A stretch of 64,000 nucleotides of DNA, from the NCBI RefSeq assembly GCF_054482595.1, contig NZ_CM137008.1; one strand, written 5' to 3'. Below, piece by piece: positions 56,486 to 56,802 of this stretch. How positions within the stretch are numbered: position 1 is the stretch's first letter; the number at the start of each line of letters is the position of its first letter. Below the pieces are notes generated by a model that was not told the origin of the DNA, did no database searches, and worked only from the letters and a program-made list of their open reading frames with translations. The translations under genes were made by a program, and so were the position numbers.

Positions 56486-56731
56486 CTACGTAATCAACCT
56501 GATTTGCCGAATCCCGACCATCGGCGATGATAGCCCCCGTAATGCGTGGTCCTTATTTCCGATAAGTTTACTTGAGTCTTTAGCTTCCCATTTCAGCCCA
56601 CTCTCCCCTGTGTGGGCTTTTTTCATTGGTCTGACCCGTCCTGAATAGCCAAACAATGGCAATGTTCCACTTTGCAGGGATGATAATAAGGGGATCTGAT
56701 TCAGAAGAGTTTTGAAAAGTTGGACCGCCAT
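56486..56731 (-). CDS. yahM: YahM, small protein of unknown function
   Basis: 81 aa from the internal start MAVQLFKTLLNQIPLL of the 91-aa track ORF; symbol assigned from position and length. Confidence 0.55.
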   Translation of the reverse strand: MAVQLFKTLLNQIPLLSSLQSGTLPLFGYSGRVRPMKKAHTGESGLKWEAKDSSKLIGNKDHALRGLSSPMVGIRQIRLIT

Positions 56732-56802
56732 CGAGGCCTCGAACCCCGTACCATACAACAATCCTGGTTGTCGTCTGCTCTTCCTGATGAGCTAATGGCG
56801 GT
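56721..56802 (-). other. Degenerate tRNA-like cloverleaf (candidate tRNA pseudogene or remnant), 3' end overlapping the yahM start codon
   Basis: Minus strand ACCGCCATTAGCTCATCAGGAAGAGCAGACGACAACCAGGATTGTTGTATGGTACGGGGTTCGAGGCCTCGATGGCGGTCCA: 7-8 bp acceptor stem, D-arm GCTC/GAGC, T-arm with TTCGAGG loop, 3' CCA; but 4 extra nt before the anticodon stem and no U33. Confidence 0.3.

Follow-up and report, generated by a model that had tools for sequence, protein, structure and literature searches.

The window, i.e. the whole stretch of 64,000 nt that was analysed, covers the prpR-yahO-yahN-yahM-yahL-yahK region of E. coli, reversed relative to K-12. On its minus strand lies an open reading frame (ORF) that is annotated in the K-12 RefSeq genome as xtpA (b4845), with the product name "putative transcriptional regulator XtpA". 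A tRNA-like element of 81 nt is situated wholly inside this ORF and makes up its codons 28-54. From the ATG of xtpA to 6 nt past the CCA of the element, there are 0 differences in 169 nt between the window and K-12 b4845, and the sole difference seen between the window strain and K-12 is at position 56920, upstream of the -35 hexamer. A preliminary description of this DNA had recorded the cloverleaf and its overlap with yahM; the xtpA ORF that contains them was absent from it. The coordinates of all features of the locus are compiled in Table 1.

Two observations concern the surrounding DNA. The gene yahL (57144-57959, minus strand) is split by an internal stop into two ORFs of 134 and 126 aa; the identical yahL region in strain SM107 is annotated as a pseudogene ("internal stop"), and yahL of K-12 is intact, with 271 aa. 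Elsewhere in the window, arrays of ~77-nt repeats are found at 22663-25250 and 47085-47724, with six and seven units, which match the Rfam family naRNA4 (CssrE) with 60-91 bits.

Table 1. Features of the xtpA locus, with positions in the window
Feature	Coordinates	Strand	Basis or remark
Putative sigma-70 promoter of xtpA (TTGACA, 16-nt spacer, CATAAT)	56890-56917	-	11 of 12 consensus positions
xtpA ORF (60 codons + stop, ATG at 56883)	56701-56883	-	ORF list; K-12 b4845
5′ transcript segment, xtpA codons 1-27	56802-56883	-	predicted hairpins at ~56845-56882 and ~56813-56840
tRNA-like element, 81 nt, very probably an argN-derived pseudo-tRNA	56721-56801	-	ARAGORN, RNAfold, blastn, alignments
5′ acceptor strand CCGCCAT	56795-56801	-	same as in argN of phage 933W
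D arm GCTC / loop ATCAGGAA / GAGC	56777-56792	-	RNAfold and segmentation of the variants
Aberrant anticodon arm	56755-56774	-	ARAGORN, RNAfold, argN alignment
T arm CGGGG / loop TTCGAGG / CCTCG	56732-56748	-	ARAGORN, RNAfold
3′ acceptor strand ATGGCGG, discriminator T and encoded CCA	56721-56731	-	holds the annotated yahM start codon
yahM, annotated ORF, 81 aa	56486-56731	-	overlaps the last 31 nt of xtpA

The end of the -10 hexamer of the putative xtpA promoter lies 7 nt upstream of the A of the ATG, which is the geometry expected of a leaderless mRNA. Judging from this spacing, transcription is expected to start at the ATG itself (56883), and the xtpA mRNA would be leaderless. The promoter is kept in E. 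albertii and in two other Escherichia lineages. One genome, E. coli A29 (L135), has three extra A residues in the promoter spacer at ~56904, so that the spacer has 19 nt instead of 16, and this longer spacer should weaken the xtpA promoter. A Reg-Seq preprint, which is based on a massively parallel reporter approach, describes an active, IHF-repressed "yahM" promoter, without mappable coordinates. The RegulonDB v12 paper credits XtpA to Muto et al. 2022, a publication whose title presents xtpA as a leaderless mRNA with a tRNA-like sequence and the XtpA peptide as a regulator of the small RNA GcvB. The element of the window is thus already known: it is the tRNA-like sequence of the published leaderless xtpA mRNA.

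ARAGORN made a single tRNA-like gene call across the 64-kb window, at 56721-56801 on the minus strand. Its label was "tRNA-Ser(gga)", and it placed the anticodon at position 38 rather than at the expected 34-35. From 56801 to 56721 (minus strand), the sequence reads CCGCCAT TA GCTC ATCAGGAA GAGC AGACGACAACCAGGATTGTTGTATGGTA CGGGG TTCGAGG CCTCG ATGGCGG T CCA. In the ARAGORN drawing, the acceptor stem is the 7-bp helix CCGCCAT/ATGGCGG. The anticodon arm can be read in two ways. RNAfold forms ACGACAA / CCAGGA / TTGTTGT, i.e. a stem of 7 bp with a 6-nt loop, while ARAGORN forms ACAAC / CAGGATT / GTTGT, with an A instead of a U at position 33. RNAfold prefers the 7-bp stem ACGACAA/UUGUUGU, which takes up the bases that appear as "extra" ones in the other reading.

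The cloverleaf is both the minimum-energy and the centroid structure of the element in RNAfold (-29 kcal/mol), and it is retained when the entire 184-nt transcript is folded. The fold energy is modest, with a z-score of -1.88 for the element (10 of 200 shuffles fold equally well) and also about -1.9 for the transcript. The sequence, ARAGORN, and RNAfold agree with the preliminary description that the minus strand folds into a cloverleaf ending in CCA, and the ARAGORN drawing and RNAfold confirm its statement that this cloverleaf is not canonical, having extra bases and no U33. It had also been right that the 3′ acceptor strand together with the CCA is the beginning of yahM: the yahM start ATG is at 56731-56729, within the 3′ acceptor strand.

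To the Rfam covariance models, the element does not look like a tRNA. The tRNA and tmRNA models gave no match at the gathering score (29 bits for tRNA, RF00005), nor at E<=10 on 56600-56920 (321 nt). Three real phage tRNAs served as positive controls in the same search and scored 54.8-72.5 bits. The lowest of these values, 54.8 bits, belongs to argN of phage 933W, whereas both the window element and its variant in phage phiP27 had no match to the tRNA model at E<=10. The only weak Rfam matches were PrrF, snoU83D, and sR084, and they look like chance. With the option -m, ARAGORN reported 0 tmRNA genes, and the tmRNA reading has no support from Rfam either.

Several features of a tRNA are present, i.e. 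the 7-bp acceptor stem, a D arm, a 5-bp T stem, a loop of the TTCRA type, and the 3′ CCA. The anticodon arm deviates, with five bases between the D stem and the ACAAC stem, where a canonical tRNA has one. We considered whether the element could still be a working tRNA, either Ser(GGA), as labelled by ARAGORN, or a variant Arg tRNA. The ARAGORN call itself and the canonical acceptor stem, T arm, and CCA are compatible with this interpretation. However, the spacing between the D and anticodon stems is accompanied by an A at position 33 or, in the alternative fold, by a loop of only 6 nt; the tRNA model is silent at E<=10 but scores the true argN far above its gathering threshold; and the element sits within an ORF. 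In addition, serine tRNAs bear a long variable arm, and the element has none. A working tRNA is thus extremely improbable. The element is tRNA-like, but far from a canonical tRNA, and it does not decode codons. The ARAGORN label "tRNA-Ser(gga)" is no reason to annotate a tRNA gene here.

The origin of the element became apparent from a sensitive blastn search of phage genomes with a 96-nt query. The best match was in phiP27 (84.9% identity over 82 nt, E 4e-18), followed by mEp460 (80.6% over 89 nt). The genes annotated as "argN tRNA-Arg" in Stx phages, 933W and VT2-Sakai among them, matched with 74.7% over 86 nt. The 933W gene occupies the middle of the cluster ileZ-argN-argO, which lies between the Q antiterminator gene and stx2. 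In phiP27, the matching stretch bears no annotation and fills the corresponding slot between ileZ and argO. Silent covariance models speak against the tRNA-like element of the preliminary description; similarity to tRNA genes, for which it had proposed a BLAST search, speaks in its favour, and the matches to phage tRNA genes are significant. The abstract that describes xtpA is said to mention a similarity to the Arg-tRNA genes carried by phages and pathogenicity islands and, reportedly, also an aminoglycoside-sensitivity phenotype.

These matches bear on the simplest alternative, namely that the cloverleaf arose by chance, which had been left open earlier. The z-score of the fold, only -1.9, and the silence of the covariance models would be in line with a chance fold. 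Yet not a single ARAGORN call resulted from 150 shuffles of the window that preserved its dinucleotides (9.6 Mb), the E value of the phiP27 match is very low, and the 81 nt are identical between species (see below). The probability of a chance cloverleaf is therefore negligible.

An alignment of the element with the phage copies revealed that the acceptor stem, the D stem, the T arm, the discriminator, and the CCA are common to all of them, and that the differences are confined to the region from the D loop through the variable loop. A comparison of the canonical with the variant anticodon stem (CCAGC/GCTGG versus ACGAC/GTTGT) shows that both bases differ in two of the five pairs, with pairing kept; the pairs were counted using our own segmentation, as MAFFT misaligned the D and anticodon stems of the variants. 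The similarity to argN extends over most of the length of the element, while the UCG anticodon and the position between ileZ and argO are lacking. The homology to phages is limited to the pseudo-tRNA and ~8 nt of the ileZ-argN spacer. Remains of ileZ, argO, and a phage promoter were sought in the flanks of the element by Smith-Waterman alignment, but none scored above the shuffled controls, and the scores for ileZ and argO were below the shuffle means. The idea that the hairpin at 56813-56840 might be a collapsed ileZ acceptor stem is unsupported. At the protein level, searches of Pfam and PHROGs placed YahL, XtpA, and YahM in no family above threshold, and thus revealed no sign of a prophage remnant.

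An origin from mobile DNA, as presumed in the preliminary description, is borne out by the homology to argN of lambdoid phages. The more specific suggestion made there, a partial tRNA copy that marks an old integration site, is not. According to this explanation, the element would be a scar at the attachment site of an island that has since been lost. The DNA from yahL to xtpA is indeed AT-rich, with 35-40% GC over 56900-58300 (yahL and the xtpA promoter), compared to 50-58% in the flanking yahK and prpR, which is consistent with horizontally acquired DNA. Furthermore, Escherichia sp. E1V33 lacks yahL, and its xtpA adjoins yahK, suggesting that this DNA is accessory-like. In contrast, the copy is full length and not a 3′ fragment, the 3′ 25 nt have no second copy in the window at <=3 mismatches, and no integrase is annotated nearby. 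The phage homologues, moreover, are cargo tRNAs in the late-regulatory region downstream of Q, and not att sites. An integration scar is thus very unlikely. Judged from the alignments, the element is a homologue of phage argN, and is neither a chance fold nor a scar of integration.

The wider family of argN variants was compiled with one pattern scan each of a one-genome-per-species collection and of IMG/VR. Four forms could be distinguished. Form A is the canonical argN of 77 nt, with the anticodon arm CCAGC-CTTCGAA-GCTGG. Form B, which many lambdoid phages carry unannotated in the argN slot between ileZ and argO, has 78-86 nt and the arm ACGAC-ACGATAACAGG-GTTGT, and its T loop is decayed in many copies; examples are found in phiP27 (L003:3001-3082), in mEp460 (L005), and in IMG/VR contigs, e.g. 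L034, L039, and L104. Neither ARAGORN nor Rfam calls these variants. Form C is the chromosomal 81-nt form of the window, which was found on chromosomes only among the scanned collections. Form D comprises shorter forms at unrelated loci, in Salmonella arizonae and S. diarizonae (ACGAC-CGGGAT-GTTGT; L011:6815-6888 and L014:220-293, 74 nt each) and in Citrobacter youngae (L008:10809-10873, 65 nt). Both Salmonella copies were called by ARAGORN as "tRNA-??? (gg)", with a 6-nt loop, and the S. arizonae copy adjoins a tRNA-Asn gene cluster. Because the form D copies are outside of the yahK/yahN context, they cannot be used to date the insertion. With their argN copies, some intact, some variant, and some in decay, lambdoid phages provide a small natural case of cargo tRNAs that lose decoding, while the half that is recognised by tRNA-processing enzymes is kept.

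The conservation of form C was analysed within and beyond E. coli. About 5200 of the 5426 complete E. coli genomes have the segment, and 4750 records have 0 mismatches over 96 nt. The cross-species search recovered three lineages in addition to E. coli, i.e. E. albertii, Escherichia sp. E1V33, and L009, a divergent "E. coli"; neither E. fergusonii nor any further Escherichia species was among them. The 81 nt are unchanged in all four lineages. In the four-lineage alignment, 25 of the 82 upstream columns vary, versus none of the 54 inner columns (Fisher p = 6e-7), the latter being those free of the search pattern, which fixed 27 of the 81 nt and which lineages changed at these positions would escape. 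Directly after the CCA, divergence with indels of 7-8 nt starts in E. albertii and Escherichia sp. E1V33. In the 5′ segment, one pair changes on both sides across Escherichia, from G-C to A-U.

Within E. coli, the eight most divergent alleles that were sampled have a single change in the element, 56734 T>C in the O157:H7 lineage, which turns a G.U of the T stem into a G-C and is synonymous in xtpA. The variation in E. coli is too low for a covariation test, as 4624 of 5196 records have an identity of at least 99%.

The reading frames that contain or overlap the element are less well preserved. Codon 4 of xtpA, which is TGG in E. coli, is TAG in E. albertii (L006:1045-1213) and in the divergent lineage L009 (L009:3464-3632), and both the promoter and the 81-nt element are intact in these two lineages. 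A further disruption is found in E. coli itself, where a 1-nt deletion at 56853 (codon 11), together with 56858 T>C, cuts XtpA to 21 aa. The deletion occurs in 240 of the 5426 complete genomes, and the exact reference allele in 3832. The element is intact in the three deletion carriers that were read (L007, L139, and L140). Cattle isolates are frequent among the matches listed for the deletion.

Indels disrupt the frame of yahM in E. albertii and Escherichia sp. E1V33, and frameshifts do so in L009; in E. coli EcPF14 and NCTC9022, the gene bears the annotation "frameshifted". It may be that yahM is not a real protein-coding gene. On the strand opposite to yahM, a conserved GC-rich hairpin followed by TTTTTT is present at 56595-56623 (plus strand), ~130 nt after the yahN stop codon, and has the appearance of a terminator for yahN. 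The invariance of the element cannot be due to dual coding, because xtpA and yahM overlap only at 56701-56731. As the 81 nt are invariant and the frames of both xtpA and yahM are broken in some lineages, selection seems to act on the RNA or DNA sequence of the element rather than on the peptide.

Conservation that is driven purely by the peptide is a serious rival to this interpretation. The fold would then be an incidental relic, and the segment would be kept only as the C-terminal half of a functional XtpA peptide. XtpA has been published and annotated as a functional product, the function has been assigned to the peptide and not to the RNA, and the ORF is intact in the window as well as in K-12. 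However, every synonymous site in codons 28-54 is invariant over the four lineages, and the variable sites in codons 1-27 (11, 8, and 6 at codon positions 1, 2, and 3, respectively) show no excess at the third position. Furthermore, the frame is closed by TAG in two species and by the frameshift in 240 E. coli genomes, and the element is unchanged in the alleles that were read. We therefore regard conservation solely through the peptide as improbable. The element is very probably a pseudo-tRNA that derives from argN of lambdoid or Stx phages, that is contained in the xtpA RNA, that does not decode, and the nucleotide sequence of which is under selection.

How such an element might operate is suggested by the part that has been preserved. 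All variants retain the acceptor/T-arm half together with the CCA, and this is the part of a tRNA that is recognised by RNase P and by the 3′ trimming enzymes. In the xtpA transcript, this half would act as an RNA element that sets or protects the 3′ end of the short transcript, or that tRNA-processing enzymes excise. The RNase P cut would fall between 56802 and 56801 and would thereby split the mRNA at codon 27/28. The resulting product, or the cleavage as such, would control the expression of xtpA, and the cut would limit XtpA synthesis. A role of the element as a signal for RNA 3′-end formation or processing is the likeliest mechanism, in which we place middling confidence. A scan for intrinsic terminators 3′ of the element on the minus strand yielded none, and the missing terminator fits a processed 3′ end, without being a proof of it.

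A more far-reaching possibility, which we put forward tentatively and which may well turn out to be wrong, is that the conserved product is the RNA of a phage pseudo-tRNA that has been adopted by the host, either as a processed small RNA or as a signal in cis for stability or processing. The XtpA peptide would then be recent, specific for E. coli, and dispensable, and the effect on GcvB would stem partly or wholly from the RNA. The apparent sequence constraint on the pseudo-tRNA poses a cheap and testable question about how xtpA works.

Among known systems, the published xtpA (K-12 b4845) is the same locus and the same object, and nothing is different at the sequence level. A likeness of another kind exists to mascRNA of MALAT1 and to the tRNA-like 3′ ends of plant viral RNAs. 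In these cases, a non-decoding cloverleaf, or half of one, is contained in a longer transcript and is recognised by tRNA enzymes. The likeness is one of the type of function and not of homology; the Rfam mascRNA model gave a partial match of 13.8 bits on 933W argN only, and not on the window element.

The argN gene of 933W and the element have the acceptor, D, and T stems, the discriminator T, and the CCA in common. The phage gene differs in being a tRNA-Arg(UCG) of the canonical 77 nt, with the anticodon arm CCAGC / CTTCGAA / GCTGG, whereas the element has a non-decoding arm and is four bases longer. The location is also different, i.e. argN is flanked by ileZ and argO downstream of Q, while the element is situated between yahL/yahK and yahN. 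The closest relative of the element is form B (phiP27, mEp460, and about 35 IMG/VR contigs), with 81-85% identity. Both share the D loop ATCAGGAA and the insert GAGC-AG-ACGAC, ...GTTGT. The loop of form B is ACGATAACAGG (11 nt) and that of the element is AACCAGGATT (10 nt), in the same ACGAC/GTTGT register. Form B lies between two real tRNA genes and the element in an ORF, and the T loop of form B is often decayed (GCGGGT, or a G-run of up to 11 G), in contrast to the chromosomal copy, which is free of such decay.
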